Source: Mustelus asterias
Taxonomy: Eukaryota
Direction of reading: 5' to 3'
Length of the DNA: 64,000 bases
Assembly (NCBI RefSeq): GCF_964213995.1
Contig: NW_027590138.1
Location: forward strand, 1,240,001 to 1,304,000
A program made the translations under genes and the position numbers. Below the pieces are notes generated by a model that did not search any database, was not told the origin of the DNA, and worked only from the letters and a program-made list of their open reading frames with translations. This document shows, piece after piece, positions 4,600 through 64,000 of this stretch; position 1 is the first letter of the stretch, and each line of letters starts with the position of its first letter.

Positions 4600-5045
4600 T
4601 TAAAGTGAGTCAGGGCCTGTCAGAGGAAGTGGGAGAGAGAAACAGAGAGGATTGAATCTCCATCAATTAGATGTTTTCTCAGACAGCGAAGAGAGATGAA
4701 GTTTGTTTGTGCCTTTTCAGAGAGAGGTAACGAGAGAGAGAAAACAATGAATAAGTTTAAGCAGATCTGAAATAGGAAGGTTAAATGAGTGAGTGTTTGA
4801 AAGAAAGATAGAGAGACATTAAGTGATGAACACAGTATCTGAGAGGGAAGAGGTTAAGTGAATGAGAGAGGAGCGAGGTTAGAATGTAAGAGAGATGGAA
4901 GGTAACGTGTGAGTGAATGCCTGGAGAAAGAGAGAGAGAGAGATGTTCAGTGAGTGTTAGAGAGATGAGAGATGTTAAGTGATTGAGTTTCTGAAAGAGA
5001 GGAGATGTTGAGTGAGTGAATGTCTAAAAGAGAGGAGAGCAGGTT
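4600..5045. repeat. AG-rich low-complexity tract (paralog ~32780-33225)
   Basis: Degenerate GAGAGA / GTGAGTGA / GTTAAGTG units. Confidence 0.7.
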
Positions 5046-7939: not shown

Positions 7940-8620
7940 GGGAGGGAGAAGCCCCGCAGCTGCAAACCAGGGAGCTGACAATGATTCTGAAGGGTTTGCG
8001 GATCCACAAAGTGTTTCCAAATCCTCCCAGCCACCGCCTAACGCTGACTCCGCTTCTCCGGGACAAACAAGCGCCAAGGACAGCAATGACACTGCGCATG
8101 CTCCACATCACAATGCCCGGGCACTGATTGACGGCAGCTCCGGACCAATAGGAAGAGGGGGCGGGGCTGGGGGACCGAACGGGAGCGGCTGGTCCTCCAA
8201 CCAATCGGAGTGAATGAGGGGCGGGACTGGAGGACCGAATGGGAGCGGCTGGTCCTCCAACCAATCGGAATGAATGAGGGGCGGGACCTGAAGCATGCGC
8301 AGTGCGGGTGAACCAGATAAACCTGTTGGACTTTAACCTGGTGTTGTTTGACTTGTTGCTGTGTTTACCCCAGTCCAACGCCGGCATCTCCACATCACTG
8401 CGGGTAATGGCGACGGACGGCCGGTTTTAGTTTGGAAGCGAGATCAATACGAGGTAGAGGGCGGCGTGCGGGGAATGATAAATGTGGCGGGTGGGTCGAG
8501 AGGCTTTGTAAACATGTTGTTCAAACCCAAACCCCGGAAATGAACTTCCCGGTTCCCCCCCTTTGTACCAAATGGAGCGGCAGCTTGTAGTGTTAGACCC
8601 GGGCTGACTGCCGCCATTGA
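7940..8620. promoter_or_regulatory. Bidirectional CpG promoter cassette upstream of ZNF-A
   Basis: TGCGCATGCTC (8094), GCATGCGCA (8293), repeated CCAAT + GGGGCGGG modules, ETS CCGGAAAT, CGCCAT; inverted homolog of 690-1060. Confidence 0.75.
8310..8398 (+). mobile_element. Penelope 3'-terminal fragment inserted in the promoter
   Basis: ATAAACCTGTTGGACTTTAACCTGGTGTTG...GGCATCTCCACATCA flanked by TGCGGGT duplication. Confidence 0.8.
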
Positions 8621-8669: not shown

Positions 8670-8836
8670 GACGTCACAATGGAATGGCTGAGGGTGTGAC
8701 GTCACAATGGAATGGGTGAGGGTGTGACGTCACAATGGAATGGGTGAGGGTGTGACGTCACCATGGAATGGGTGAGGGTGTGACGTCACAATGGAATGGG
8801 TGAGGGTGTGAGGTCACAATGGAATGGGTGAGGGTT
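8670..8836. repeat. 28-bp minisatellite x6 containing CRE palindromes
   Basis: Unit GACGTCACAATGGAATGGGTGAGGGTGT; four perfect GTGACGTCAC sites. Confidence 0.92.
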
Positions 8837-14890: not shown

Positions 14891-16328
14891 AAAGAACAAA
14901 GAACAATACAGCACAGGAACAGGCCCTTCGGCCCTCCAAGCCTGCACCGATCATGTGTTCCTAACTAGACCATCCGTTTGTATCCCTCTATTCCCAGTCT
15001 GTTCATATGGTTATCATTAAAATACGTCCCCTGCATATCTGTATTGAACCTTGCCCCCCCTTACCTTGAACTTGTGACCCCTTCTGTTTGTCGTTTCTGA
15101 CCTGGGAAAAAGCTTCCAACTGTTCACCCTATCTATGCCCTTCATAATTTTATAAACTTCTATTAGGCCGCCCCTCCACCTCTGTTTTTCCAGGGAGAAC
15201 AACCCTAGTTTACTCAATCTCTCCTCATAGCTAATACCCTCCATACCAGGCAACATCCTGGTTAACCTTTTCTGCACTCTCTCCAAAGCCTCCACGTCCT
15301 TCTGGTAGTGTGGCGACCAGAACTGGACGCAGTATTCCAAATGCGGCCGAACCAACGTTCTATACATCTGCACCATCAGACCCCAACTTTTATACTCTAT
15401 GCCCCGTCCAATAAAAGCAAGCATGCCATATGCCTTCTTCACCACCCTTTCCACCTGTGTTGCCACCTTTAAGGTTCTGTGGACTTGCACATCCAGATCC
15501 TTCTGCGTGTCTATACTCCTGATGGTTCTGCCATTTATTGTATAGCTCCCCCCTGCATTAGATCTACCAAAATGCATCACTTCGCATTTATCTGGATTAA
15601 GTTCCATCTGCCATTTCTCCGCCCAATTTTCCAGCCTATCTATGTCCTGCTGTATTCTCTGACAATGTTCATCACAATCCACAACTCCAGCAATCATTGT
15701 GTCGTCCGCAAACTTACTAATCAGACTTGCTACATCTTCTTCCAAATCATTTATATATATCACAAACAGCAGAGGTCCCAATACAGAGCCCTGCGGAACA
15801 CCACTAGTCACAGACCTCCAATCAGAAAAAGACCCCTCCGCTGCTACCCTCTGTCTTCTATGGCCAAACCAGTTCTGTACCCATCTAGCGAGCTCACCTT
15901 TGATCCCGTGAGATTTAACCTTTTGCACCAGCCTGCCATGAGGGACCTTGTCAAATGCTTTACTAAAATCCATGTAGACGACATCCACGGCCCTTCCCTC
16001 GTCAGTCATTTTTGTCACCGCCTCAAAAAACTCAACCAAATTTGTGAGGCATGACCTCCCTCGCACAAAACCATGTTGTCTATTGCTAATGAGATTATTC
16101 AGTTCTAAATGTGTACAGATCCTATCTCTAAGAATCTTCTCCAACAATTTCCCTACCACGGACGTCAAGCTCACTGGCCTATGATTACCCGGGTTATCCT
16201 TGCTACCCTTCTTAAATAACGGGACCACATTTGCTATTCTCCAATCCTCTGGGACCTCACCTGTGTCCAATGAAGAAACAAAGATTTCTGTTAGAGGCCC
16301 AGCAATTTCATCTCTTGTCTCTCTCAGT
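14891..16328 (-). mobile_element. CR1 LINE, 5'-truncated, with long open RT ORF (15017-16354)
   Basis: VPEDWRIANVVPLFKKG, RPVSLTS, DFSKAFDKV, GVPQGSVLGP, FADD; (TTGTTCT) tail; flanked by ~220-bp direct repeats. Confidence 0.95.
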
Positions 16329-18489
16329 AACTGGAAGTCCCTCCCTAACAGCACTGTGGGTGTACGTACACCTCAGGCATTGCAGCAGTTCAAGAAGGCA
16401 CCCTTGGGGTTGACCATGGCCAAGGCAGCTACATACAGCCACATATTGTGTTATAATTGAAGAACTGCAGATTGAATGTGAGGCATTGTGGGACTGGACT
16501 ATCTTGACCATATTCCTGTGACTGCCCGGAAACTCATGTGTCTATTTTAGTTTAAAATTGAGGATTTCTGGGAATAATGTCTCAGATGGTGGCCAGATTA
16601 TCAAATTCAGTTCTCTCAAATAATTCATAGACAAAGAAACAAGTATCTCCAAGAGAAAACTGTCACCTCATTCATCTCATCTCGACTTCCCTTTCACTCA
16701 AATCTTCATAAACACCCAAATGTATGGATTCCTTTAAACTGCACTTTCAGGAGTTCTCGAGAATCTTTAGAGTTAAATAAATCATTAAATATTCTCATAA
16801 TATCTTTTAACAGAAACCAAACATTTCTGTTTGATTCCAGGCATTATCAACTTTGTTCTTTCCCTTAAACACCAGGTAATTTCCATTTTAAATGCTTGAA
16901 ATAGCAACTCATGTCAGATATTTATCAATTCCAATATCAAAAGCAGGCTTGTTGGCTTTCTGAAAAGTAAAGTCTTTTATTCTCTGCTTTAATTCTCAAA
17001 ACTGCTGCCTTCACTCGGATTGTTTGTGAGTGAAACCGTCATCACCTGTTTAAAAAAACCCCATAAACAATCCATCTGGCTCTGGCCAAGATCCCAGTGA
17101 GTTAATATGTCCAATCACAGGTTACATTAAAAAACAAAGGCTGTGTGGAGATTTATAAAAATCAGCTGTCTGCTGAAAGGGTTAACTTCTCTGTGGAACC
17201 GAGAGAGGCGGGGAGTGGGCAGAGGAAACTTGGCAATTGTGTCAATTTACATAATTTAAAAAACTTCTCTCATGTTATTTTCTTCGATTTTGTTCAAATT
17301 TCATCTCTTTTATCTCTCCTTTTTTGAACACCAATTTCAATTTTCAATATTTGCTACTTAATCAAAGTTGAAAGAAATACTTTGTGAAATGTGTTGTTAA
17401 CTGAATCTCAACAATTTTAACTCAAATGTTTTGGAAAGTTGGAACTGGTTTGCTGCCAAACTGCAGCCTTATCTTTGTGTTTTGGGAGCAAATTGTCCTT
17501 CACAATTCTAACCTTGAACAAGTTAATTTCAAACCCAAATACATTCCTTTCACATTTTAGCACAGTCTGAATTTATTTCAAACAGAAACTCACGGCTGTT
17601 CAAATTAAATTAATTTTTATTCCCTTTCCAAACTAATTCTTCGAATCGATGATGCTTTCAAACAACGCCCTGCCTCAACAATTATGACTCAAATGTACGG
17701 TATTCCTTCAACTGGGCAAACCAACTTGGAGTAAGCGTTGTGGATCATGACGGTGCAAAGGTCATGGCTACCCTCACACACCTGCATTCCCTTATCACAC
17801 AGGAGAGGGGGGAGTGCTTTCAGTGATTCTTTTTTTTGGAGAAAACAACTACATCTGCTCGCTGGTGACTGATTTGTGTCTCAGGTTGTTTGATGTTAGC
17901 TAAACACAGGGAGTGTTCTGTCTCAGGGAGGTGTCACTTTGTGGCTGAGTTAACTTTCTCAAAGTCCCCATGGCATTTTCTCACTCTTCACTTGATCTGA
18001 TATTTTCTGACTGTAAATCAATATCTTGTTCCAGGGTTTGGCCGAACAGCAGTAGATTTTTCTGAGCTCCACTCACCCTATCATCTGCCCCCTGTTCCCA
18101 ATGTAACTGATTGTCCTGGTCAGACGTGCTCTCCTGCCAGCAATCAGCTCCATTCTGCAGCTTATCCACCAGTTCCCTCAACTCTTTATATTTTGTACTC
18201 AGCTGGGAGGCAACAGGTTTCCAATGTAACTGGAAATTAATTTATTCTGGACTTTTTCCAACTCACTATTTCCTTTCTGAATCTCTTTAGAAAACCTATC
18301 AAGGACCCGCTCGTAATCTCCGTCACATTCTTCTCCACCTCCCAGTGGATCAGTTGCTCCTGATGCCCTTGGCTCCGTTGTCAAACTGTCAGTCACATTG
18401 TAGCAGATGCCAAAGCCATTGTTGTATTTGTTTTTTTGAGGCAGCAGTGCGAACCACTGTGCCACTGGATGGAATGCTGGCACAGTGGA

Positions 18490-29490: not shown

Positions 29491-29524
29491 TGCTGCTTGT
29501 CCAATAATCACAGTGACAGAGTCT

Positions 29525-30140
29525 CAGTGTAACAATGACACACACAGGCTCCAATACAATCAGAGTGGGGATGGAGCACAGAGACAACACAGCAAAGCAC
29601 TGACTTACTCTGAGTGTAACAATGACACACACAGGCTCCAATACAATCAGAGTGGGGATGGAGCACAGAGACAACACAGCAAAGCACTGACTTACTCTGA
29701 GTGTAACAATGACACACACAGGCTCCAATACAATCAGAGTGGGGGTGGAGCACAGAGACAACACAGCAAAGCACTGACTTACTCTGAGTGTAACAGTGAC
29801 ACACACAGGCTCCAATACAATCAGAGTGGGGATGGAGCACAGAGACAACACAGCAAAGCACTGACTTACTCTGAGTGTAACAGTGACACACACAGGCTCC
29901 AATACAATCAGAGTGGGGATGGAGCACAGAGACAACACAGCAAAGCACTGACTTACTCTGAGTGTAACAATGACACACACAGGCTCCAATACAATCAGAG
30001 TGGGGATGGAGCACAGAGACAACACAGCAAAGCACTGACTTACTCTGAGTGTAACAATGACACACACAGACTCCAATACAATCAGAGTGGAGATGGGGCA
30101 CAGAGACAACACAGCAAAGCACTGACTTACTCTGAGTGCA
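29525..30140. repeat. 87-bp tandem repeat x7
   Basis: Unit TGAGTGTAACAATGACACACACAGGCTCC...CACTGACTTACTC; one unit at the paralogous site ~2520-2610. Confidence 0.95.
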
Positions 30141-30391
30141 ACAAATACAATGTTTGTTCAAATAATAAGAGTCACGTTGCAGTATGTTAGCGAACACAGC
30201 ATTAGATCCAATGTAATGGTAATACAGTCAGTATCTAGTGCACCATAACCAAAGTTTAGGTTTCATTTGATAGTGTGAGTGAGTCATGGTCTATTGATAT
30301 AATGTATTTAGATTCCGGTGTGTGTTACTCTGCCACTGTCAGTATCAAACAATAACCTGTCTGTTATTCCAATTCTGCTGTATTTTACAAC

Positions 30392-30607: not shown

Positions 30608-31908
30608 GTATTTTACAACTGCAGCTCCTGGGGCTGATTGGAGTCTGGTATAATAATCACAAAGGTCGGTTTCAGTGTCTCTGAGGTCATTTTAACTGCA
30701 GGTAATCTGACATTAAGGGAGACAAGAGGCCCAACAAACATTTGATTATAATAGGAGGACAAAGTGTAAGGGAACAATGATATTTTAAGGTGTCTGTGTT
30801 ATGGTGAGTGTTACTGGGAGGTGAGTGATAAAATACAAGTGGAAACATCACGACAGATACATGTGACTGATTCGGCCTGACTGAGAGCTGTTATACTCGA
30901 GGCGAGAATAATGAGGACATGGGGAACTCCAGGGATTTCTGATATCTGAGGTGTATCTGTTCGAGGAACTGAAAATAATCAGTTCCTCCTCATGGTTATC
31001 TCCAGTTCTCAAGTTACACAGACACACAGGAAAGAGATCTGACAGCTCATCAAACACAATATTTTAATCTTCTGTTTGAGACACATTATAATCGAAAAGA
31101 TCAAATATTAAAACCTGAGGAGAGAAACATTCAGAATGTCACAAAGATGAGTGAACTGTCCAATTAATCCCATTCTCCATAACTCTGCCAATTTACCTTC
31201 TGCAAGTATTTATCCAATTCCCTTTGAAAGTTACTAGTAAACCTGTTTCTAGCACCTGTCAGTTTGTGCATTCCAGATCATATGAAGTTATTGTGTAAAA
31301 CATTCTCCTTATCACCCCCTCCAATTCTGTTGTCAATTAAATTAAATCTCTGTATCCTCTGCTTACAGACCTTCCTGCACCAAGGAAATCGATTCTCTCC
31401 ATCGACAGACCCTCCTGCTCCTGGGAGATAATTTCTCTCCATTGATACTATCATTAATCATTTGTCATTTTAAACACCTCTATTAAATCTCCCCATCACA
31501 TTCCCTGATCTAAGATGGATAACCCATGTTTTTCCTGCCCTGAAGAATAAATGGACTCAAAATGTTAACTCTCTGAACAGATGCCGCCGGACCTGCCGGG
31601 TTTTTCTGCTTTTCTCCCTGTTTATCCCTCTATAATCAATCAGAAACTCTTCATGATTTTGAACATCTTGATCAAATAGGAACACACAGAGCCTGAGAGA
31701 GGTACAGAGGGAGAGACAGAAAGACTGAGAGAAAAATTGAGAAAGATTTTAAAAAGCAGGAAGATGAGGCGGTCAAAGATAAAAGCTGAGAAACAGAGGA
31801 AACAAGCAATACAGAGAGAATGATATAGAATATAAGGGAGCAGGCTATCAGTTCCCAGCTATGGGGAGCAGAGTCGGCATCTCCACGTCAGAGCAGAGGG
31901 AACTCAGT

Positions 31909-32249
31909 GGGCGGCACAGTAGCACAGTGGTTAGCACTGCTGCTTCACAGCTCCAGGGACCTGGGTTCGATTCCGGCTCGGGTCACTGTCTGTGTGGAGT
32001 TTGCACATTCTCCTCGTGTCTGCGTGGGTTTCCTCCGGGTGCTCCAGTTTCCTCCCACAGTCCAAAGATGTGTGGGTTAGGCTGATTGGCCATGCTAAAT
32101 TTGCCCCTTAGTTTTCTGAGATGTGTAGGTTAGAGGGATTAGCGGGTAAAAATATGGAGGGATATGGGGGTAGGGCCTGGGTGGGATTGTGGTCGGTACA
32201 GACTCGATGGGCCAAATGGCCTCTTTCTGCACTGTAGGGTTTCTATGAT
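31909..32249 (+). mobile_element. HE1-like SINE, full length, inserted after the duplication
   Basis: Head, core and tail intact; TCAGT duplication; empty site at ~4068. Confidence 0.92.
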
Positions 32250-34135
32250 TCAGTAACTGATCCACAGACACAGCTGGTTATATCTGCAAATGGAAACTCT
32301 GAACAGAAATAACTGGCTCATTTGTAAATGTCACCACAATGTGATCTGTGTGACTCTGCCCTGACTCTGTGGACAGATATAGGTCACATTGACAGATGTT
32401 CTCACCAGATTGTTGTCCCTGGATTTATTTTCTGCTTAGAACTGAGATGTGAGGTTTGGAACCGGCAGCAGAGAAACAGGAAGTTGTGTTACCTGAGAGT
32501 GAAACAGCCGGTGTCAGTTTGATGTTATCACCATGAACAGTCTTCCTGTCTGTGAGGGTGAACTCACTCTGACAGCATCAAGAACAACCACACAGATTGC
32601 TGCCGGTCTCAGCATTACATTCAGCTCCATTCCCATTTTAAACAATAAAGAAAGGAGATTATTATGGATTTTTAACACATTCACTGAATTGGGAGATGGA
32701 CTGAGGGTCATCAGTGGGAGAAATGAGGAGGAATTAGAGAACAAATGAGTTTTCCCAAAGAGGGTTATTAGAAAAGAGGAGATTTAAAGTGAGTCAGGGC
32801 CTGTCAGAGGCAGTGGGAGAGAGAAACAGAGAGGATTGAATCTCCATCAATTACATGTTTTCTCAGGCAGCGAAGAGAGATGAAGTGTGTTTGTGCTTTT
32901 TCAGAGAGAGGTAATGAGAGAGAGAAAACAATGAACAAGTATAAGCAGATCTGAAATAGGAAGGTTAAATGAGTGAGTGTTTGAAAGAAAGATAGAGAGA
33001 CATTAAGTGACGAAGACAGTTTCTGAGAGGAGAGAGGTTAAGTGAAAATGAGAGAGGAGCGAGGTTAGAGTGTAAGAGAGGTGGAAGGTGAGGTAAGTGT
33101 GAGTGAATGCCTGGAGAGAGAGAGAGACGTTCAGTGAGTGTGAGAGAGATGAGAGATGTTGAGTGATTGAGTTTCTGAGAGAGAGGAGATGTTAAGTGAG
33201 TGAATGTCTGAAAGAGAGGAGAGCAGGTTCACACCCAGGGGTCACTGAGGATGATCAAAATAAGGAGATCACCCAGAAAACTACCAACAGGAAACTTCAG
33301 CTGAACACATCACTCATTCTTAAATGATCAGTCAGGGCTCTGGTGCTGCTCAGCTTCTCTCTGTTCTGTTCATAATGGTTAAAGGCTGATAGGAGTGAGG
33401 TTTATTTAAAAGGATAGTGTATGGGAAGCACACAACAAAACTGAGAATTCTTGGACACACACTGCAGCTCCTTCTCTATCTGGGAATCAAATTGTTGTCT
33501 AATTGTCCCAGCAGTTAACAGGCTCCTTTGAACTTCTCCAGCTGCTACTTTGATGCAGACTTCAACCAATTTATTTGAAGCCAGTTTCTGTTCAATAAAC
33601 CAGGACTGACACACACACACATTAAAACGTTTTAGACTTTTTTTCATTTTTAGTCTGGAAACCTAAACCTGCCGTTTCACTCTCAGTCAGGAATAGATCC
33701 CAGTTTTACACCAATCTTTGACAGCACGTTTCCAGCATTCACCATTGTTCTTCCTGACTCTAAACACAGTTGTAAAGGAGCTTCTTTTCCGTGTCTAGGA
33801 GCTCGGAACCATGGAAAAGAGCGACTGGGACACATTTTTTTCACACCTCAGGATTCACCCACGCGGGGACTTTGCTGTCAGTGGAAAGTGACGAAAAAGA
33901 CCAAAGTGCTGTGTGTCCCTCTCAGCGTGACCCTGAAGGACTGGGTCAAGAATGAAGTTCTGTTCCTACTGTATGATCCTCCCTCAGATTGCCCTTTCTG
34001 AGCTCCAGCCTGGTGACGTTAAACACTCAAATGGAAAAGACAAAAATCTACAACAATGATTCAATCAAATGTCTATTTCACATTTATTCAGAATATCAAA
34101 CCTCAACAGAAGAAAAAAGTCAGAGTGAACATGAT

Positions 34136-35460
34136 TCAGACCTGGATATGATTAACAGCATCGATAAGTGTAGAATCCAAACCTTGCAGTCCCTTGTGAA
34201 CTCGCCGGTGTGTTAGCAGGTGGGATGACTGAATAAATCCCTTTCCACAGACATTACAGGTGAACGGCCTCTCCCCAGTGTGAACTCGCTGGTGTTTCAG
34301 AAGATAAGATAAATGAGAAAATCCCTTCCCACAAACAGAGCAGGTAAATGGCCTCTCCCCACTGTGAACTCTCTGATGTGTCAGCACGTTGGATGACTGA
34401 CTGAATCCCTTCCCACACGTGGAGCAGGTGAACGGCCTTTCCCCAGTGTGAACTCGCTGGTGATTCAATAAGTTGGATGAACGAGTGAATCCCTTCCCAC
34501 AAACGGAGCAAGTGAATGGCCTTTCCTCACTGTGAACCTGCTGGTGTGTCAGAAGGTTGTATGAACGGGTGAATCCCTTCCCACACACGGAGCAAGTGAA
34601 TGGCCTCTCCTCACTGTGAACCTGCTGGTGTGTCAGAAGGTTGTATGAATGGGTGAATCCCTTCCCACAGTCTGAGCAGGTGAACGGTCGATCCCCTGTA
34701 TGGAACTGCTGGTGTATCAGAAGGTTGGATGAATTAATAAATCCCTTCCCACAGTCTGAGCAGGTCATAGAAATCATAGAAACCCTACAGTGCAGAAGGA
34801 GGCCATTCGGCCCATCGAGTCTGCACCGACCACAATCCCACCCAGGCCCTACCCCCACAAGGGCCTCTCCCCAGTGTGAATTCTCTGGTGGTTCAGTAGG
34901 GCAGATGGGCAGCTGAATCCCTTCCCACACACACAGCAGGTGAATGGCCTCTCCCCAGTGTGAGTATATTGGTGCGTCAGCAGATCCTTTTTGTTTTTAA
35001 AGCTCTTCGCACAGTCAGAACAATTAAAAAGTTTGTTATCAGAGTGAACAAGTTGATGTGTCTGCAAGTGGGATGACTGAATGAATCCTTTCCCACACAC
35101 AGAGCAGGTGAACGGTCTCTCCCCAGTGTGAATTCGTTGGTGTGTCAGCAGATCTTTTTTGCATTTAAAACTCTTCTCACAGTCAGAACATGTAAACAGT
35201 TTCTCATCAGTGTGAACAAGTTGGTGTGTCACAATGTGGGATGAGCGAGTGAATCCCTTCCCACACACAGGGCAGGTGAACGGCCTCTCCCCAGTGTGAA
35301 CCCGTTGGTGAGTCAGAAGATTGTATGAATGGGTGAATCCCTTCCCACAGACGGAGCAGGTGAACGGTCTCTCCCCAGTGTGACTGCGCCGATGAACTTC
35401 CAATTGTGATGGGAAACCGAATCCCTTCCCACAATCCACACATTCCCACGGTTTCTCCAT
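34136..35460 (-). pseudogene. ZNF-A' (14 fingers), disrupted by a SINE tail insertion
   Basis: Paralog of ZNF-A with one extra duplicated finger; a 93-bp insert at 34766-34858 shifts the frame (HTGERPLWG*). Confidence 0.88.
34766..34858 (-). mobile_element. HE1 SINE 3' fragment inside ZNF coding sequence
   Basis: CATAGAAATCATAGAAACCCTACAGTGCAGAAGGAGGCCATTCGGCCC; empty site at ~6499. Confidence 0.9.
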
Positions 35461-38178: not shown

Positions 38179-40011
38179 GTGGACACTGACCTTCACAAGA
38201 AAGCCAGATACGATCGAAGGAGATCCATCAAAGATGCCAAAAGACAATACCTGACCAAGTTAGAGTCCCAGGCTAGCCACACCAAACCCAATTATGGCAA
38301 GGTCTGCAAGACATAACAGTCTACAAAATGAAGGCATGTAAAATTGCCGGCTCCAACGCACCCCTCCCTGATGAGATCAATGCATTCTATGTCCGTTTTG
38401 AGAAAGTGGTCAGCAAGTGCATGCCCTCCACCCTGGAAGCCCTGGATGAACCTGTATCTGGGGTCACCACTTCAGATGTCAGAGCAGCTTTCTTGAAGGT
38501 CAACCCACGGAAAGCAACTGACCCAGGTGGGGTACCCGGAAATGCACTCAGATCATGCATGGATTAGCTGGCAGAGGTATTCACAGACATCTTCAACCTC
38601 TCTTTACAAGAATCTGAGGTCCCTATCTGCTTCAAGAAGATGACCATAATCCCGGTACTTAAGAAAAATCAAGCAGCATGCCTTAATGACTATCGGCCGG
38701 TGGCTCTGACATCCATCATTATCAAGTGCTTCGAAAGGTTAGTCATGGCACAAATCAATTCCAGCCTCCCAGACTACCTGGATCCACTACAGTTTGCCTA
38801 CCACTGCAACAGGTCCACAGCAGATGCCATTTCCCTGGCCTTGCACTCAACCCTGGAACACAGAGATAACAAGGACACCTATGTCAGACTCCTATTTATT
38901 GACTACAGCTCAGCCTTCAACACTATTATTCCCAAGAAACTCCTCTCCAAACTCCATGGCCTGGGCCTCGGCACCTCCTTCTCCGACTGGATCCTGAACT
39001 TCCTAACTCATAGACCACAATCAGTAAGGATAGGTAACAGCACCTACTCCATGATCATCCTCAACACTGGTGCCCCACAAGGTTGTGTTCTCAGCCCCCT
39101 ACTATACTCCTGATACACCTATGACTGTGCGGAAAAATTCCCCTCCAATTCAATTTTCAAGTTTGATGATGACACCACCGTAGTGGGATAGATCTCAAAC
39201 AATGACAAGACAGAGTACAGGAATGAGATAGAGAATCTGGTGAACTGGTGCGGCAACAAAAATCTCTCCCTCAATTTCAACAAAACAAAGGAGATTGTCA
39301 TCAACTTCAGGAAGCGTAAATGAAAACATGCTCCTTTCTACATCAATGGGGATGAAGTAGAAAGGGTCGAGAACTTCAAGTTTTTAGGTGTCCAGATCAC
39401 CAACAATCTGTCCTGGTCCCCCCATGCCGACACTATAGTTAAGAAAGCCCACCAGCGCCTCTACTTTCTCAGAAGACTAAGGAAATTTGGCATGTCAGCT
39501 ACGACTCTCACCAACTTTAACAGATGCACCATAGAAAGCATTCTTTCTGCTGTATCACAGCTTGGTATGGCTCCTGCTCTGCCCAACACCGCAAGGAACT
39601 ACAAAAGGTCGTGAATGTAGCCCAATCCATCACGCAAACCAGCCTCCCATCCATTGACTCTGTCTGCACTTCCTGCTGCCTCGGCAAAGCAGCCAGCATA
39701 ATTAAGGACCCCACGCATCGCAGACATTCTCTCTTCCACCTTCTTCCTTTGGGAAAAAGATACAAAAGTCTGAGGTCACGTACCAACCGACTCAAGAACA
39801 GCTTCTTCCCCACTGCTGTCAGGCTTTTGAATGGACTTACCTTGCATTAAGTTGATCTTTCTCTACACCCTAGCTATGACCGTAACACTACATTCTGCAC
39901 TCTCTCCTTTCCTTCTCTATGAACGGCATGCTTTGGCTGTATAGCGTGCAAGAAACAATACTTTTCACTGTATGTTAATACATGCGACAAAAAAAGATCA
40001 AATCAAATCAA
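38179..40011 (+). mobile_element. Rex1/Babar-like LINE, 5'-truncated and degenerate
   Basis: [51 protein letters not shown]; (ATCAA)n tail. Confidence 0.9.
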
Positions 40012-42019: not shown

Positions 42020-43400
42020 AGAGAAATCTCTCCAACTCGATTTTCAAGTTTGCTAATGAACCACAGTAAAGCCAAAGAAAAGCCAAGCAGCGTGCCTTAA
42101 TGACTATCATCCAGTGGTTCTGATATCCATCATTATGAAATACTTTGAAAGGTTAGTCATGGCACGAATCAATTCCAGCCTCCCAGACTGCCTGGATCCA
42201 CTACAGTTTGCCTCGCACCGCAGCAGGTCCACAGCAGACGTCATCTCCCTGGCCATGCACTTAACCCTGGAACACCTAGATAACAAACACACCGATGTCA
42301 GACTCCTATTTATTGACAGCTCAGCCTTCAACAACATTATTCCAACAAAACTCATCTCCAAACTCTGTGGCCTGGGCCTCGGCTCCTCCCTCTGCGATTG
42401 GATCCTGAACTTCCCAACCCATAGACCACAATTAGTAATGATAGGCAACAACACCTCCTCCAAGATCATCCTCAACACCGGTGCCCCACAAGGCTGTGTT
42501 CTCAGCCCCCTATTACACTTCTGATACATCTGTGACTGTGTGGTCAAATTTCCCTCCAACTCGATTTTCAAGTTTGCTGACGACACCACCGGATGGTGGG
42601 TCGGATCTCAAACAATGATGAGACAGAATACCGGAATGAGATAGAGAATCTGGTGAACTGGTGCGGCAACAATAATCTCTCCCTCAATGTCAACAAAATG
42701 AAGAAGATTGTCATTGACTTCAGAAAGTGTAGAGGAGAATATGCCCCTGTCTACAGCAACAGGGACGACGTAGAAAGGGTCGAGATCTTCAAGTTTTTAG
42801 GTGATCGGATCACCAACCTGTCCTGGTCCAACACTATAGTGAAGAAAGCCCACCAACTCCTCTACTTTCTCAGAAGACTAAGGAAATTTGGCATGTCAGC
42901 TATGACTCTCATCAACTTTTACAGATGCATCATAGAAGTCATTCTTTCTGGTTGCATTACAGCTTGGCATGGCTCCTGCTCTGCCCAAGACCACAAGAAA
43001 CTACCAAAGATCGTGAATTAAGCTCAATCCATCACGCAAACCAGTCTCCCATCCATTGACTCTGTCTACACTTCTGGCAAAGCAGCCAGCATAATTAATA
43101 GCCCCACGCACTCCGGACATTCTCTTCTCTTCCACCTTCTTCCGTCAGGAAAAAGATACAAAAGTCTGCAGTCACATACCAACCGACTCAAGAACAGCTT
43201 CTTCCCTGCTGCCATCAGACTTTTGAATAGGCCTACCTTGTCTTAAGTTGATCCTTCTCTGCATCCTAGCTATGACTGTAACACTACATTCTGCATCCTC
43301 TCCTTTCCTTCTCTATGTATGATATGCTTTGTCTATATAGCGCAAGAAAGAATACTTTTCACTGGATACTAATACATGTGGGAATAATAAATCAAATCAA
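42020..43400 (+). mobile_element. Rex1-like LINE, second copy
   Basis: [32 protein letters not shown]; (ATCAA) tail. Confidence 0.9.
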
Positions 43401-44807: not shown

Positions 44808-45503
44808 CTGTCTGACCTGCTGAGTATTTCCAGCATTTTTTGTGTTTATTTCAGATATCCAGCAGCTGCAATATTTTGCTGGTATTTTATTGTAGGCATT
44901 GCTCACAGAGCCAACTTTAGAAACAAGATTGACCAATTATGAAACAAAAACAAAGAGCTGGAAAATCTCAACAGGTCAGACAGCATCTGTGGAGATGGAG
45001 CCAAAGTTTGAAATGTTGGCTCTGTTCTCTCTCCACAGATCAGCTCCTCTGATCCTTCTTGGGGGTGGAGTTTGAGGGATTGGAAGATTCTGTCAAGGTT
45101 CTGGTTAGTGATGGGTAAATAAAATCCCTATACTTCACCTCCTGCCTCTCCAACATCTTTCTCTCTCCTCCCATAGATCCAATCGTCATGTGTAGACCCA
45201 CACTGGTTGGCACCTCCCTTCCCTGAAGGGCATTGGTGAACCAGTTGGGTTTTTGTGAAAATTGAGCAGTTTTCATGATCACTTTTTCCTCCTGCTGGCC
45301 CCACAAATTACCACATTCATTCAGCTCAATTTCTCAACCTGCCTTTATGTTTTTGTGAACTCTCTCTCACTCCCTTTTTTTTGTTTTAAATCACAGGATT
45401 GTAGAAGAGGAGGATTTACAAGCGGAAAACTCAAATCAAACATCACACCAGAATCTGAGAATCGTCCAATTTGTCATAACCTGAATATCATAGGACTTTC
45501 AAC

Positions 45504-48500
45504 ATGGAAGGAAAAAGCACCATTCACAGTGGAGAGAAACTGTACACGTGTTCTGTGTGTGGACAAAGATTCAGCCAATCATCTGCCCTTTTGAAACACC
45601 AGCGAGCTCACACTGGAGGGAGGCTGTTCATTTGCAGTGTTTGTGGGAAAGGATTTACTCCATCATTTACCCTTCTCAGACACCAGCGAGTTCACACTGG
45701 GGAGAGGCCATTTACCTGCTCTGTGTGTGGGAAGGGATTCACTCAGTTATCCTGCCTGCTAACACACCAACACACTCACACTGGGGAGAGGCTGTTCACC
45801 TGCTCGGAATGTGGGAAGGGATTCATTAATTCAACTAATTTGCTGACACACCAGCGAGTTCACACTGGAGAGAGGCCTTTCACCTGCCCTGCATGTGGCA
45901 AAGGATTCATGAATTCATCCAACCTGCAGAGACACCAACGAGTTCACACTGGGGATACTCCCTGTGTGGGAAGGGATTCACTCAATCATCCCATCTGCAG
46001 AGACACCAGCGAATTCACACTGGGGAGAGGCCATTTACCTGTTCTGATTGTGGGAAGGGATTCACTCAGTTATCCCACTGGCTAAGACACCAGCGAGTTC
46101 ACACGGGGGAAAGGCCATTCACCTGCTCCGAGTGTGGAAAGGGATTCACTCAAGCAAATGACCTACTGAGACACAAACGAGTTCACACTGGGGAGAAGCC
46201 ATTCATCTGCTCTGTGTGTGGAAAGGGGTTCACTCAATCAAATGACCTGCTCAGACACGATCGAGTGCACACTGGGGAGAGACCATTTACCTGCTCTGAG
46301 TGTGGGAAGGGATTCACTCGGTCATCCAACCTATTGGATCACCAGAGAATTCACACTGGGGAGAGACTATTTATCTGCTCTGAGTGTGGGAAGGGATTCA
46401 CTACCTCATCCAGCTGGCAGGGGCACAAGCGAGTTCACACTGAAGCAAGAACTTTGACCTGCACCGAGCCTGGGAAGGGAGTCACAATCTCATCCAGCCA
46501 GCAAGGACACCGGAGAGTTCAGACTGAGGGAAGTCCAGTTACCTGTACTGAGTCTGGAAAGAGAGTCATTCAGTCATCCAACCAGCAGGGACACCGGAGA
46601 GTTCAGACTGAGGAAAGTCCCGTTACCTGCACTGAGGGACGTTCAGTTATCTGCACTGAGGAAAGTTCAGTTACCTGCACTGAGGGAAGTTCAGTTACCT
46701 GCACTGAGGGAAGTCCAGTTACCTGCACTGAGGAAAGTCCCGTTACCTGCACTGAGGGACGTTCAGTTACCTGTACTGAGGAAAGTTCAGTTACCTCTAC
46801 TGAGGAAAGTTCAGTTACCTGCACTGAGGGACGTTCAGTTACCTGTACTGAGGAAAGTTCAGTTACCTGCACTGAGGGAAGTTCAGTTACCTGTACTGAG
46901 GAAAGTTCAGTTACCTGTACTGAGGGAAGTTCAGTTACCTGCACTGAGGGAAGTTCAGTTACCTGTACTGAGGAAAGTTCAGTTACCTGCACTGAGGAAA
47001 GTTCAGTTACCTGCACTGAGGGACGTTCAGTTACCTGTACTGAGGGAAGTTCAGTTACCTGCACTGAGGGAAGTTCAGTTACCTGCACTGAGGGACGTTC
47101 AGTTACCTGCACTGAGGGAAGTTCAGTTACCTGCACTGAGGGACGTTCAGTTACCTGTACTGAGGGAAGTTCAGTTACCTGCACTGAGGGAAGTTCAGTT
47201 ACCTGCACTGAGGGAAGTTCAGTTACCTGTACTGAGGAAAGTTCAGTTACCTGCACTGAGGGACGTTCAGTTACCTGCACTGAGGGAAGTTCAGTTACCT
47301 GTACTGAGGGACGTTCAGTTACCTGCACTGAGGGAAGTTCAGTTACCTGCACTGAGGGACGTTCAGTTACCTGCACTGAGGGGCGTTCAGTTACCTGCAC
47401 TGAGGGGCGTTCAGTTACCTGCACTGAGGGAAGTTCAGTTACCTGCACTGAGGGACGTTCAGTTACCTGCACTGAGGGGCGTTCAGTTACCTGCACTGAG
47501 GGGCGTTCAGTTACCTGCACTGAGGGAAGTTCAGTTACCTGTACTGAGGGACGTTCAGTTACCTGTACTGAGGGAAGTTCAGTTACCTGTACTGAGGGAA
47601 GTTCAGTTACCTGTACTGAGGGAAGTTCAGTTACCTGTACTGAGGGAAGTTCAGTTACCTGTACTGAGGGAAGTTCAGTTACCTGCACTGAGGGAAGACC
47701 AGTTACCTGTACTGAGGGAAGTTCAGTTACCTGCACTGAGGGAAGTTCAGTTACCTGCACTGAGGGAAGACCAGTTACCTGTACTGAGGGAAGTTCAGTT
47801 ACCTGCACTGAGGAAAGTTCAGTTACCTGCACTGAGGGAAGACCAGTTACCTGCTCTGAGTCTGGGAAGGGAGTCATTCAGTCATCCAGCCAGCAGAGAT
47901 GCCACAGAGTTCGCATTGAGGAAAGTCCAGTTACCTGCACAGAGTCTGGGAAGGGATTCATTCCATTATCTAATCTGCTGACAGACGAGCGAGACGACAC
48001 CGATGAAAGACCTTTGAAATGTCCAGACAGTGGGACTTGTTTTCAAAGTTCTGTGGAATTGGTGTCCCATCAATGTGTTCACACTGACGAGAGACTATTC
48101 AGGTGCTCTCACTGTGGGGCTGCGTTCATGCGATCGTCTGACCTCACTGAACACCAATGCACTCACTCTGGGGAAAGGCTCCTCACTTTGCCCAGGTGTG
48201 GAAAGGGATTCACTCAGTCATCCAACCTGCTGACACGCCAGCAAGGTCGCAATGTGAAGAGGCAGTTCACTTGTCCCGAGTGTGGGAAGGGATTTACCCA
48301 GTCAACCAACCTGCTGAGACACCAGCGAGTCCACACTAGGGAGAGGCCATTCCTCTGCTCCGAGTGTGGGAAGGGATTCACTGAGTTATGCAACCTGATG
48401 ACACACCAACGGGTTCACACTGGGGAGAGGCCCTTCCTCTGCTCAGAGTGTGGGAAGGGTTTTATTAATTCCACCAACATGCTGCGACACCAGCGAGTTC

Positions 48501-48784
48501 ACACTGGAGAGAGGCCGTTCACCTGCCTCAATTGTGGGAAGAAATTCACTCAGTTACCACATCTACAGAGACACCAGCGAGTTCACTCAGGGGAGAGGCC
48601 ATTCCCCTGCACTGTGTGTGAGAAGGGATTCGCTCAGTTATCACACCTGGTAAGACACCAACGAGTTCACACTGGGGAGAAACCATTCACCTGCTCCCAG
48701 TGTGGGAAGGAATTCACCCAGTCAAATGACTTGCTGAGACACCAGCGACTTCACACTGAGGAGAGACCATCCATGTGGCTCTGA
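45504..48784 (+). CDS. ZNF-D: ~24 finger units with internal (VTCTEGSS)52 repeat; frameshift near 45955
   Basis: ORF 45504 gives five fingers; a ~13-bp linker deletion (GGGGA^TACTCC) shifts into the 963-aa ORF 45893-48784, which starts at a real ATG; degenerate fingers continue to ~49170. Confidence 0.7.
46607..47854 (+). repeat. 24-bp coding minisatellite x52
   Basis: Unit ACTGAGGGAAGTTCAGTTACCTGC; 1248 bp = 52 x 24, in frame throughout. Confidence 0.97.
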
Positions 48785-49379
48785 GTGTGGGAAGAGATTC
48801 ACTCAGTTATCCAGTCTGCTGAAACACCAGAGAGTTCACACTAGGGAGGTGCTGTCCATCTGCTCTGCATGAGAAAACGGATTCTCTCAGTCATCCTGCC
48901 TGCTTCGATTCACCAGTAATTTCACATTGTGCAAAACCCTTTAAATGCCGGGACTGTGGGAAGTACAATAAATGTTCCTGGGAACTGCAACATCTACATG
49001 TTCATACTGATCAGATACCGTTCAGGTGCTTTCACTGCGGATGCGTCCAAGAAATCATTTCAACTTACAGTACACCAGAACTTTCACAGTGCGGAGAGCC
49101 TCCACCTGCCTTGAATGTGGGAAGGAATTTGCTTATTTATCCCATGTGCTGAGATACCAGCGAGTTCACAATTAACTACAGTGATCAGACTTTGCTGTTG
49201 ATCATGTTCAGGATTGAATTATGTTCATTGGGGTCTGTTTCTGTTGACGTTAGTAAACCCCACCCTAGTTGTAGGGGCTGATCCTCTTGCTAAAAGTCAA
49301 ATAAATCAACTTTGCATCTAATAAGCTTGTACTCTTTTTACTATCTCCGACATCAAGTCAGAAGGTCTCTCCCCTCCCC

Positions 49380-50479: not shown

Positions 50480-50700
50480 GTGGATGGCGCATGCTCGGTC
50501 ATTGACAGGTCACAATACCCGAGTGATTGATGGCAGCTCCGGACCAATAGCAAGAGGGGGCGGGGCTGGAGTACCGAGCGGGAGCGGCTGGTCCTCCAAC
50601 CAGAGTAAATGAGGGGCGGGGCTGAGCTCTGCATCATTGTGAAAGCTGCTTTGTGTCAAACTCCAGGAGAAAACTGGACCTTTCTGTTTGTGGCTTCAAA
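50480..50700. promoter_or_regulatory. Orphan copy of the promoter cassette
   Basis: GCGCATGCTC, GGACCAATAG..GGGGCGGGGC, GGTCCTCCAACCA; continues into sequence shared with 36830-36908. Confidence 0.65.
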
Positions 50701-51024
50701 CAGATGGAGCCCTGTGGGTGTGGAGCAAACAGATGGAGCCCTGTGGGTGCGGAGCAAACAGATGGAGCCCTGTGGGTGCGGAGCAAACAGATGGAGCCCT
50801 GTGGGTGCGGTGCAAACAGATGGAGCCCTGTGGGTGCGGAGCAAACAGATGGAGCCCTGTGAGTGCGGAGCAAACAGATGGAGCCCTGTGGGTGCGGAGC
50901 AAACAGATGGAGCCCTGTGGGTGCGGAGCAAACAGATGGAGCCCTGTGGGTGCGGAGCAAACAGATGGAGCCCTGTGGGTGCGGAGCAAACAGATGGAGC
51001 CCTGTGGGTGCGGAGCAAACAGAT
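50698..51024. repeat. 29-bp tandem repeat x11
   Basis: Unit AAACAGATGGAGCCCTGTGGGTGCGGAGC, head-to-tail without spacers. Confidence 0.95.
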
Positions 51025-54489: not shown

Positions 54490-55135
<646 letters not shown>

Positions 55136-55270
55136 TTTCTGCCCAGTGTGACTTGTGTTTCAACAGGTCAGACGATTGGCAGAAGCCATTTCACCCACTG
55201 TCAGAATGAACATGGTTCAGTCCTGGATGTGATTAACAGCAGCAATAACAGCAGAATCCAACCCCTGTCA

Positions 55271-55859
55271 TCACTTGTGAATTCGCTGGTGTCTCAGCAG
55301 GTGGGATGACCAAGTGAATCCCTTCCCGCACACGGAGCAGGTGAATGGTTTCTCCCCAGAGTGAATTCGCTGGTGTGTCTGCAGGCTGGAGAACTGAGTG
55401 AATCCCTTCCCACACACGGTGCAGGTGAACAGCTTCTCCCCGGTGTGAACTCGCTGGTGTGTCAGCAGGGTGGATGAGTGAGTAAATCTCTTCTCACACT
55501 CTGAGCAGGTGAACGGCCGCTCCCCAGTGTGAACTCGCCAGTGTGCCAGCAGGGTGGAGGAGTCTTTAAATCCCTTCCCACAGTCAGAGCAAATGAACGG
55601 CCTCTCCCCAGTGTGAACTCGCTGGTGTCTCAGCAGAAGGGATGGATTAGTGAATCCCTTCCCACATTGAGAGCAGGTGAATGGCCTCTCGACTGTGAAC
55701 CTGTTGGTGTGTCAGCAGTGTGGACGACTGAGCAAATCCCTTCCCACACTTGGAGCAGATGAATGGTCTCTCCCCAGTGTGACTGCGTCGATGAGTTTCC
55801 AGCTCAGACGGGGACCTGAATCCCTTCTCACAGTCCCCACATTTCCACGGTTTCTCCAT
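55271..55859 (-). pseudogene. ZNF-E: 7 fingers, frameshift near 55690
   Basis: ACCATGGAGAAACCG start; linker deletion (HSREAI); acceptor TTACAG|GATATT at 56157. Confidence 0.8.
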
Positions 55860-56690
55860 GGTGCGGGTGTCCTTGTGACTCTCCAGGTTAAACAATAAGT
55901 TAAATCTCACATGGAACACGTGTACAGTTTCTTCCCGTTGTGAATGGCGATGTTTTTTCAGGCTGTGTAACAGGTTAAAGCTCTTTCCACACTCAGTTCA
56001 CTGGAACACTCTCAATCAGGTGTGTGTGTGTCTCGGTGCTTTTCCAGTCACAATGATGTTAGAATGGCCGAAGGTTTCACATCCTAGTGAATTGAGTGGC
56101 TCAGATCTTGATGTTTGTTTTGAGATTTCTGTCTCAAAATTCTCCCCTTCTAATATCCTGTAAAAGGAGTTCACAAAAGTCACCACTATTAGTGTAGGAT
56201 AAAAATTCAGAACAGACAGTTTTAGTTTCTCTGGAACAATCTACCTCTCATTCCCCCAAAACTGTAAATCTGTCTATTTTTCCTCCATTCTCAGTCTGCT
56301 GTCCCTCCAACGCTCCTGAAGATGCTAATTCATGTTGATTGACAGATCAATACATAATGCTTCCTGTCCTCAACACAGAGACCATAACATCATGGAAAGT
56401 AGGAGGAATAGACCATTCGGCCCATTGAGCCTGCTGTTCCATTCAATAAGATGATGGTTGATCCGATTGTGCCCTTAACTCCACGTTCCCGCCTGTCGGC
56501 CATAACTCTTGTGGATAACAATCTGCCTAACTCAGCCTGACGCAGCCTCCACTGCTCCCTGGGGAAAATAATTCCAAAGACTCCCTGAGGGAAGAAATTT
56601 CTCCTCGTCTCCATTCGAAATGAGAAACCCTTTATATTTGGCATTCTGCCCATGTGGGGAAATAACCTCTCTTCATCTGTCAAGCTACCT

Positions 56691-60278: not shown

Positions 60279-61399
60279 TTACTCGTGAACTGGCTGGTGT
60301 CTCAGCAGATTGGATAACTCGATGAATCCTTTCCCCACACTGGGAACAGGTGAATGCCTCTCCCCAGTGTGAATTCGCTGGTGCCTCTGCAGGTTGGCTG
60401 ACTGAGTGAATCCCTTCCCACATTTAGGGCAGGTGAATGGCCTTTCTCCAGTATGTGTGCGCTGGTGTTTCAGCAGGGTGGATAAATCAGTGAATCCCTT
60501 CCCACACTCGGAGCAGGTGAATGGTCTCTCCCCGGTGTGAATTCGTTGGTGAACAGTCAGGTTTGTTGATCTCCTGAACCCAGTCCCGCAGTCAGTGCAC
60601 TTGAATGGTCTCTCGTCCGTGTGAACGCGTTGATGGGACATCAGTTGGCTGGAACTTTTATAGCACTTCCCACAGTCTGGGCATTTAAAAGGTCTCTCGT
60701 CAGTGTGAACTCGCTGGTGTGTCAGCAAGTCAGATGGCCGAGTGAATCTCTTCCCACATTCTGAGCAGGTGAATGGCTTCTCCGCAGTGTGAGTCATTGT
60801 GTGTAAATGCAGGCTGCCGGACTGAGTGAATCCCTTCCCACACTCAGAGCAGGTGAACGGTCTCTCCCCAGTGTGAACCTGCCGGTGAACCAAGAGGTTG
60901 GATAATTGAATGAATCCCTTCCCACACTCGGAGCAGGTATATGGTCTCTCTCCAGAGTGAACTCGCTGGTGTGTCTGTCGGTGGGATGACCGAGTGAAAC
61001 TCTTCCCACACACGGAACAGGTGAATGGCTTTTCCCCAGTGTGATCACGTTGGTGTGTCAGCAGGTGGGATGACTGAGTGAATCTCTTCCCACACTGAGA
61101 GCAGGTGAATGGCCTCTCCCCAGTGTGAACACGCCGGTGATTCAGCAAGGTTGCCGACCGAGTGAATCCCTTCCCACACTCGGGGCAGGTGAACGGTCTC
61201 TCCCCACTATGAAGTCGCTGGTGATTCTGCAGGGCAGATGAATGAGTGAATTCCTTCCCACAGTCCCCACATTTCCACACCTTCTCCCTGTTGTGACTGC
61301 GCTTGTGTCTCGACAGGCCAGCTGACTGGCTGAAGCCTCGCCCACACACAGAACACTGTACAGTTTCTCTCCACTGTCAACGGTGCTTCTTTCTTCCAT
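60279..61399 (-). pseudogene. ZNF-F: 12-13 fingers, 1-bp deletion shortly after the MEERST start
   Basis: CTGTACAGTGTTCT versus CTGTACACGTGTTCT in ZNF-D; 356-codon open finger array follows; acceptor TTTCACAG|GG at 61508. Confidence 0.75.
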
Positions 61400-62805
61400 G
61401 TTCAAAATCCGATGAAATTCAGGTTATGATAAATTAGGTGACCCCGTCAGATTTTGATGTGATGTTTGATTTCAGTTTCCTGACTGCAAATCCTCCCCTT
61501 CTAAAGCCCTGTGAAATTGATTTAAAACAGAAAAAAGGGAGTGAGAGAGAACCCACAAGAACACAAAGGCAGATTGTGAAATTGAGCTGAATGAATCTGG
61601 TAATTTGTGGGGCAGGCACTAGGAAAACGTGACCATGGAAACTGCTGGATTGTCACAAAAATCAGACAGGTTCAGTAATATCCTTCAGGGAAGAGAACCT
61701 GCCATCTGTTCTGTGCCTTCACAAGACTCTGGACACAATGGGTGAAGAGAGACAGAGTGATATATATACACATAATATATACATACACACGAGAGAGATT
61801 GCCCCAATACAAACTTCACTCCCTAACCGCGCTATCCTTCTCCCGAGCAACTATCTGAAGTGAAATTAATTTCACAACATTACTGCCATCCTTTACCCAA
61901 AACTGAGCTTCCGACCCTGTACCTCTAGACTTAACCACCCCATCTCTGAAATCTCCTCCATCACACAACCCCGTGAGATATCTGTACTGATCTAATTGTG
62001 GCATCATGAGTGTTCCACATTTCAATCACACCAACACTGTGAAAAAGTGTGTGTAACTGGAAAATACAGATCAACATCCACAACCAACACCCGCCCCGAT
62101 ACAAGTCACTCTTAATTGGTCAATCGCTGCTTCAAGGCTCGGTTCTGGGACAAACGCCTGCAACAAAATAATAGCAAAATACTGTGGTTGCTGAAAATCT
62201 GAAATAAAAAGAGCAAATACTGAAAATACTTAACTTGTTAGCAAGTAACTGTGGCAAGAGAACAGAGTTAAAATATCTGAGTGTGCAGAATCAATATGGG
62301 TATACAATCAGGATCAAGCGTAGGCCATTCAGCCCCTCAAGCCTGTTCCACCATTTAATAAGATCATGGCTAATCTGATAGTAACTTCAAATCTTCAATT
62401 CCAGGGAATTATGGTGCAGATTTGATGTTTAATATCAGCCAATGAGCAAAAGAGAAATGATCTCCAGTGCAGGAAAAAGAATTCCTGACCATTGGGAGAT
62501 AAAGATGGTACATCAGAAGCACATAGCTGAGGGATGGGAAAAGGTGAAAGCTTCATCTAGACACAGTTGCAAGAAAATAACAGTAAAGTACCAAACACGG
62601 TTAAAATAAATCTACTACTAGAAAATAGAGAGTCAAACAATGACAGAGGTAATCAGAGAGGGCAGAGGTGAAACAGAGCAATGGATGGATATGGATTCAG
62701 ATCCAAAGAAAGAGTCAGACCAGCCTGAGAGATAGAACAGAGCACAAATAACAGAGCATGGCACTAAAAGCACTGGATTGTAGATGAATGCTCAATAATA
62801 CTCAC

Positions 62806-62898: not shown

Positions 62899-63355
62899 CT
62901 GTAAAAGGAGATTACAAGAGTCATGTGTCAACTGTGGTTAGAAAATAAGAGATAAACATTTTTCTTGGTTTGCGATTGCTCCCCTTTTAACCCCCTGTAA
63001 AAGGGTGCAGGATTATGTAAAATGGGATACGCTTACATTGGAAGTAATTCAGACAAGGTTCACTAAGCTGATTCCAGGCATGAAGTGTTTTTTTTAAATG
63101 AGGAAACATTGGGTAGGGTGTACATATACTCATTAGATTTTAGATAAATGTTGTAACTGAAGCATATAAGATTCTGTGGGTGCTTGGCAGGATAAGTGCT
63201 GCAAGGATGTTTCGCCTCAGAGGGAAATGTGGAACTGCAGAGACAGTTTAAAAGGAAGGGTTGAAGACAGAGATGAGGAGAAATCGCTTCGCTCAGGAGG
63301 TCCAGTAGCCTGTGCAATTCTCTCCTTCAGTGAGCAATGGAAGCTGGCTCATTGG

Positions 63356-64000
63356 CAGCAACCTCTGCAAGACGTGCCGGACACAGCAACCTCTGCAAGA
63401 CGTGCCGGACACAGCAACCTCTGCAAGACGTGCCGGATCATCGACACAGATGCCATCATCTCACGTGAGAACACCATCCACCAGGTACATGGTACATACT
63501 CTTGCAACTCGGCCAACGTTGTCTACCTGATACGCTGCAAGAAAGGATGTCCCGAGGCATGGTACATTGGGGAAACTATGCAGACGCTGCGACAACGGAT
63601 GAATGAACACCGCTCGACAATCACCAGGCAAGACTGTTCTCTTCCTGTTGGGGAGCACTTCAGCGGTCACGGGCATTCGGCCTCTGATATTCGGGTAAGC
63701 GTTCTCCAAGGCGGCCTTCGCGACACACGACGGCGCATAGTCGCTGAGCAGAAACTGATAGCCAAGTTCCGCACACACGAGGACGGCCTCAACCGGGATA
63801 TTGGGTTCATGGCACACTATTTGTAACCCCCACAGAGTTTCACTGGCTGTCTTGTCTGGAGACAATACACATCTTTTTAGCCTGTCTTGATGCTCTCTCC
63901 ACTCACATTGTTTTGTTTCTTAAAGACTTGATTAGTTGTAAGTATTCGCATTCCAACCATTATTCATGTAAATTGAGTTTGTGTCTTTATATGCTCTGTT
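63356..64000 (+). mobile_element. Penelope 3' part (GIY-YIG), runs off the window
   Basis: NVVYLIRCKKGCPEAWYIGET...EDGLNRD, open to the stop at 63826. Confidence 0.92.

Follow-up and report, generated by a model that had tools for sequence, protein, structure and literature searches.

The window, by which we mean the whole 64,000-nt stretch of DNA that was analysed, contains a cluster of tandem C2H2 zinc finger (ZNF) genes amid retroelement remnants. Five of its seven finger-array loci are disrupted; the two intact ones are the genes at 12.1-12.8 kb and 24.0-25.4 kb. A segmental duplication (2870-6582 and 30669-34765, about 94% identity) includes a ZNF gene whose two copies have been broken differently, one having lost 2 nt from a TG run near 6740 and the other carrying an insertion of ~90 nt near 34850. 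The insertion lies within a finger linker (34770-34860, minus strand) and resembles the 3' tail of a shark LINE/SINE. Two further disrupted loci occur on the minus strand, at 54500-56000 (a 2-nt loss in finger 3, with further stops at 55.7 kb) and at 60279-61460 (a 1-nt loss right after the start, at 61.4 kb). Retroelement-remnant open reading frames (ORFs) are found at 1298-2071, 15017-16372, 38568-39113, 42060-42524 and 63170-63826; we take them to resemble Penelope-type GIY-YIG endonuclease and LINE reverse transcriptase. Minisatellites other than the one described below include those at 8158-8287 (60 x 2.2), 8670-8835 (28 x 5.9), 29522-30144 (87 x 7.2) and 50697-51024 (29 x 11.3). The 87-bp array has open frames of 231-239 codons and no recognisable gene. 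No tRNA or Rfam match was obtained in the 64,000-nt window.

One of the disrupted loci, on the plus strand, carries a 24-bp repeat within its finger array. The host gene is a tandem C2H2 ZNF with 17 matches to the C-x2-C-x12-H-x3-H pattern at 84-nt spacing (28 residues) and TGEKP-type linkers, and Pfam PF00096 is above cut-off in both of its frames. Its features are as follows.

45375..45396, plus strand: probable splice acceptor of the single finger-coding exon, judged from a T-rich tract ending in CAG
45504..46085, plus strand: natural frame of this allele (193 aa), fingers 1-5 and a frameshifted tail
45893..48784, plus strand: 963-aa ORF, with an ATG off-frame inside finger 5, entering the finger frame after the deletion
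45945..46015, plus strand: finger 6, 71 nt in place of the normal 84, net 13-nt deletion after about 45955
46040..46438, plus strand: fingers 7-11, all four Zn ligands each, Pfam zf-C2H2
46436..46606, plus strand: fingers 12-13, degenerate, lacking the second Cys and the last His
46607..47854, plus strand: minisatellite, 52 x 24 bp, the unit being the linker and first Cys of degenerate finger 14
47855..48271, plus strand: the remaining part of finger 14, then fingers 15-18; degenerate, no stop and no frameshift
48272..48754, plus strand: fingers 19-24, all four Zn ligands each, several like fingers 3-8
48752..49166, plus strand: older truncation and five decayed fingers, now an untranslated tail with 6 indels and 2 stops

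The start of the gene is placed at ATG 45504, which has a strong context (A at -3, G at +4) and an N-terminal leader like those with which named shark ZNFs open. The stretch 45156-45520, within which the probable splice acceptor lies, shares 78% identity with its counterpart in the paralog at 61756-61383. The older truncation consists of one added nucleotide near 48776. Fingers 20, 21, 23 and 24 (48356-48754) are closest, or tied for closest, to fingers 3, 4, 7 and 8 (45717-46186), with their order conserved, which suggests an old internal duplication of a finger block.

No single open frame runs from the family start across the whole finger array. Finger 6 has lost its first Cys codon together with a net 13 nt, and Tandem Repeats Finder (TRF) reports a period of 71 there. 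A short inverted repeat with 4-bp arms lies at the lesion (45952-45962), and a templated repair insertion could be conceived in place of a clean deletion plus a Cys-to-Tyr change. The frame from 45504 stops at 46085, upstream of the repeat, so this haplotype should not translate it and the array should be silent. An earlier note on this DNA had claimed a 963-aa protein containing the repeat. The ORF itself is open from 45893 to 48784, as stated there, but it is not the gene's own frame; it exists because finger 6 is 71 nt long rather than 84, and the stop at 46085 argues against the claimed product.

It is nevertheless conceivable that this allele makes the 963-aa protein from ATG 45893, through leaky scanning, from a transcription start inside the gene or by splicing around the lesion. 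The frame remains open for 963 codons and encodes 13 Pfam zf-C2H2 stretches, and an mRNA whose premature stop lies in its last exon may escape decay. However, ATG 45893 is weak, with T at both -3 and +4, and sits behind both the strong ATG 45504 and ATG 45809, and the first ~23 residues of the product would be off-frame finger sequence. No GTRAG donor was present among the nine GT sites listed before the finger-6 lesion in a crude motif look. The next Met of the ORF is residue 746, beyond the array, so re-initiation cannot take in the repeat. We regard production of this protein as very improbable.

The repeat consists of 52 phased 24-bp units at 46607-47854 with zero indels, exactly as the earlier note had described it, and was scored by TRF as period 24, 52.2 copies, 93% matches, 0% indels and score 2074. 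The peptide description given there, (VTCTEGSS)52, is right in the number of units and their length of eight residues, but the array is heterogeneous: TEGSSVTC makes up only 22 of the 52 units, followed by TEGRSVTC (14), TEESSVTC (8), the residual TEGRPVTC that had been pointed out (3) and others (5). The regularities attributed to it were borne out, with Cys ending 51 of 52 units, one every eight residues, and Thr-Cys-Thr at 49 of 52 unit junctions. Since Thr-Cys is the end of the finger's own linker and the next Thr is the first residue of the following copy, the tripeptide is a by-product of duplication. The conceptual product has 416 aa (25% Thr, 20% Ser, 15% Glu, 12% Cys) and a net charge of -45. 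The open frame of the array was rejected as a sign of coding. Three of its six frames are stop-free, so that openness is no evidence of coding; four other minisatellites of the window have 3, 5, 0 and 4 stop-free frames out of 6, and the probability of no stop among the nine changes in the array is 0.52.

At the DNA level there are 13 unit types, and the array shows the minisatellite features of head-to-tail units within 10-100 bp and interspersed variants. The longest exactly repeated run is four units, and of six variants tested, two lie preferentially toward one end (p = 0.003, 0.002). Such heterogeneity and end bias are more readily explained by a genuine, evolving minisatellite than by an assembly artefact. 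An error of assembly or consensus in the array length or in the 13-nt deletion would agree with the 1-2 nt frameshifts of several neighbouring ZNF genes, one of them in a TG run. It is at odds with the 13 unit types, the exact runs of at most four units and the positional order of the variants; a loss of 13 nt in non-homopolymer sequence is, in our judgement, untypical of read errors, and one neighbour is broken by a real mutation, the ~90-nt insertion. We therefore consider such an error improbable.

The proposed origin of the unit from a finger linker was upheld. With the linker of intact finger 10, the consensus unit shares 18 of 24 nt and the final unit of the array 20 of 24. The distance from 46604 to 48080 is 1476 nt, which equals 51 x 24 + 3 x 84, so that exactly one linker has been replaced by the array. 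Derivation of the array from a C2H2 finger linker is thus solid as read from the DNA. The suggested ACTGAG slippage microhomology was also found, as two copies 24 nt apart in unexpanded finger 13, at 46523; apart from the array, the window has no other pair of this kind. Finger 13 adjoins the array and keeps one unexpanded 24-nt unit between its copies. At the 3' junction of the array itself, the second copy reads TCTGAG, matching at 5 of 6 positions. In the minisatellite origin model of Haber and Louis, flanking direct repeats of 5-10 bp serve as the start (PMC3389668). The present locus resembles the minisatellites treated in that model in that the neighbouring unexpanded finger carries a 6-bp direct repeat at a distance of 24 nt and the array has interspersed unit variants and end-biased types. 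It differs from them, as far as they are described there, in that the seed is a protein-coding piece of a finger and the unit is in frame (PMC3389668).

Relatives of the host gene were found among shark and ray cluster ZNFs. The best named matches to the region following the array come from Heterodontus, Mustelus, Amblyraja, Narcine and Heptranchias at 42-58% identity, which makes a cartilaginous fish the most likely source of the DNA, and include genes named zinc finger protein 850-, 721- or 271-like (Heterodontus francisci, Mustelus asterias, Amblyraja radiata). These genes share with the host the N-terminal leader and arrays of 28-residue fingers, but in the 15 named ZNFs from sharks and rays that were inspected, neither the repeat nor the CxE[S/P]GK dead fingers occur, and no orthologue was identified among them. 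The dead fingers together with the first units were matched by none of 180 candidates of 529-1686 aa and none of 680 candidates of 30-528 aa. As read from these three sets (0/180, 0/680 and 0/15), the array would be lineage-restricted. In a phmmer search of 1.84 billion representatives, the best 150 of 6986 matches were, as judged for the unnamed ones from the match table, generic poly-finger proteins of 27-45% identity, in which the best stretch ended at query residue 66-80 (in one case at 99/105). The best result of an ESM Atlas search (0.87, recognition 712) gave no usable lead, and nothing on shark ZNF clusters was found in the literature covered. Many long NCBI shark "zinc finger" models (P0010, P0012, P0016, P0151, P0152 and others) contain non-finger inserts of 300-800 residues that resemble retroelement or random sequence linking separate finger exons, so public models of shark ZNF clusters are probably chimeric.

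The degenerate fingers around the array bear on whether the stretch was once translated. Six of the seven fingers 12-18 lack at least one ligand, finger 17 being the one that retains its set. Mean differences to the nearest intact finger are 19.9 for fingers 12-18 versus 13.5 for intact fingers, a class assigned after inspection of the fingers. All eight degenerate units contain 0 gaps and 0 stops over 159 substitutions. A simulation with substitutions only gave P = 0.09-0.41 for the absence of stops in the degenerate block, which is not significant, and the stop-free block was dropped as coding evidence in its own right; the case for past coding therefore rests on comparison with the gene's own 3' tail, and on few events. 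The tail was used as a matched control, against the same 420-nt paralog reference as fingers 14-18. It differs from this reference by 120 substitutions, 2 stops and 5 indels beyond the truncating one (4 of them frame-breaking), whereas fingers 14-18 differ by 110 substitutions and one compensated 3-nt gap pair, with no frame break and no stop. For 4-6 lesions to land without exception in the tail, the probability is 0.001-0.012. Derived changes are common to fingers 12-15, which are therefore not fully independent. Degenerate fingers free of lesions, set against six lesions in an equally diverged tail, suggest that the stretch was long translated as a spacer. The spacer role proposed in the earlier note is thus supported as a historical one by the decayed fingers around the array, which acquired neither stops nor frameshifts. 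In the past, fingers 12-18 were probably a relaxed yet translated spacer between fingers 1-11 and fingers 19-24.

The relative ages of the deletion and the array were estimated from the same locus. Fingers 7-11 and 19-24, 3' of the deletion, retain 44 of 44 ligands, which bounds divergence since the lesion at about 2-3%, and the 13-nt deletion looks recent. Variants born within the array show 3.8% pairwise diversity, or about 1.9% per lineage (6 mutations in 24 sites). The array is probably older than the deletion and would have grown while coding; the data lean this way and are no proof of it, since a depth of ~1.9% per lineage falls within the 2-3% bound on time since the deletion, and minisatellites may mutate faster than their flanks, which weakens the order of events. 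At the variant sites of the array, 3 of 9 changes are synonymous versus 25% expected (p = 0.40, nine sites having little power), so the variants look neutral, with no sign of selection.

Alternatively, the array may have expanded only after the death of the gene, as a never-translated pseudogene minisatellite whose 24-nt period is simply the spacing of the direct repeat. The neutral variation, the frameshift upstream of the array and the overlapping age estimates are all consistent with this, and the window has further minisatellites, with periods of 28, 29, 33, 60 and 87. A diversity of 3.8% and 13 positionally structured unit types, however, need time, and the fingers behind the lesion have suffered only 0-1 ligand losses. 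We consider expansion after gene death unlikely, though it is the strongest of the alternatives.

The earlier note had further read the repeat as a new domain, with an antifreeze-like solenoid or a metal/redox module as its possible form. The alternation of Val/Cys and Thr in the unit could suit a two-sided beta-solenoid, and AlphaFold2 gave an all-beta model for 16 units (pLDDT 85.0, pTM 0.73). The antisense nonsense frame of the array DNA, used as a control, reached pLDDT 79.8, so the structure-prediction check barely separates sense from antisense and does not bear out the solenoid reading. AlphaFold2 is also reported to have predicted beta-solenoids for 32 of 78 perfect repeats of random sequence (PMC11795689). 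None of 72 Foldseek matches reached E<=0.001. VIA-align returned a list of generic beta-helices with identities of 0-18%, in which adhesins and ice-binding proteins were tied at Z 11-13 with 0-11% identity. Two of the ice-binding proteins were 3ult, at Z 12.7 with an rmsd of 8.2 (114 aligned), and 3p4g, at Z 11.6 with an rmsd of 2.2 (126 aligned). Beetle antifreeze proteins were absent among the Foldseek and VIA-align matches listed, and a beta-helical fold is still compatible with these results. A PDB sequence search with the array returned 3 matches at E<=10 (best E = 0.57), with no antifreeze protein among them.

Metallothioneins have clustered Cys (CC, CxC, CxxC) and about 30% Cys, in contrast to the single Cys per eight residues and 12% Cys of the array. 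No metallothionein family was among the array's four Pfam matches at E<=0.1, none of which had a stretch passing alone. The cupin and CopK matches were likewise discarded as summed repeat noise. The beetle proteins TmAFP and DhbAFP are described as secreted, with 8-12 kDa, 6-11 repeats and a 28-residue signal peptide, and their repeat, TCTxSxNCxxAx, has 12 residues and two disulfide-linked Cys (PMC8038014). With these proteins, so far as that source describes them, the array shares a regular Thr-Cys-Thr tripeptide (PMC8038014), but it is built of 52 copies of an 8-residue, one-Cys unit inside a ZNF and has an unrelated ancestor. The mismatch between the 8-residue one-Cys unit and the 12-residue two-Cys beetle repeat counts against the suggested antifreeze-like role. 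The remark that the protein lacks a signal peptide was correct, since on inspection each of the two possible N-termini consists of finger sequence, in or out of frame.

Intact alleles of this species or of related ones might still produce a selected domain, whether a Thr-ladder beta-solenoid or a Cys metal/redox module. Past translation of the stretch, the 52 units without indel or stop, and the alignment of the all-beta model with beta-helical proteins including 3ult and 3p4g speak in its favour. Against these stand the nearly equal confidence of the antisense control, the solenoids called for random repeats, the Foldseek search with nothing at E<=0.001, the generic VIA-align list, the neutral-looking variants with no purifying selection seen, the failure of the searches above to find a homologue, and a nuclear-type host with no signal peptide and a broken allele. 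We hold such a domain to be a long shot. The corresponding model, in which intact alleles would express a ZNF of ~1,100 residues with the 416-residue repeat as a newborn solenoid or metal-binding domain and a length-variable spacer between finger blocks, is in our view just as doubtful.

The reading that we favour, with somewhat better than even confidence, is that of a minisatellite in a relaxed, once-translated spacer of a recently broken cartilaginous-fish ZNF gene. The host would have been a cluster-type C2H2 gene with, at one time, about 29 fingers. Fingers 12-18 would have shed Zn ligands while keeping their frame, as the matched test suggests, because fingers 19-24 behind them were still needed. 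Substitutions in this relaxed, translated spacer would then have created the 6-bp direct repeat 24 nt apart, and slippage or unequal exchange, a mechanism that we infer from the linker origin seen in the sequence, would have duplicated the linker unit, with later amplification to 52 copies. The unit length is a multiple of three, so growth kept the frame and would have been tolerated. The product would have been at most an acidic low-complexity tether with no selected sequence. Finally, the recent 13-nt deletion in finger 6 would have halted translation at 193 aa and silenced the repeat.

Several elements of this history are already known, namely degenerate fingers in arrays, whole-finger coding minisatellites as in PRDM9, and minisatellites seeded by direct repeats. 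The PRDM9 unit is 84 bp long. As in the present gene, it belongs to a minisatellite within a C2H2 finger array, but as portrayed in the source cited each PRDM9 unit is a whole functional finger (PMC3890296). In ZNF443, 4 of 19 fingers are reported to be degenerate, and such arrays, as presented in that report, resemble the present one in having ligand-less fingers in frame among intact ones (PMC2667407). The gene described here differs from PRDM9 in that its unit comprises 8 of the 28 codons of a dead finger, with one ligand, neutral variation and a broken ORF, and from degenerate-finger arrays in that one degenerate linker has been amplified 52-fold. No published amplification of a sub-finger linker was found in the literature covered, which fell short of most subscription papers.

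The locus serves as an example of two traps in the interpretation of such sequences. A long ORF can arise where an off-frame ATG precedes a frameshift, and AlphaFold2 can assign a confident solenoid to any repeat that is close to perfect. It also offers a case in which the birth of a repeat within a gene can be traced, from finger decay under frame constraint through a short direct repeat to a 52-fold in-frame amplification, with the unexpanded ancestor unit still beside the array. Translation of an intact allele into a repeat that folds or binds metal would make the locus far more important, as a new domain born from the linker of a transcription factor.
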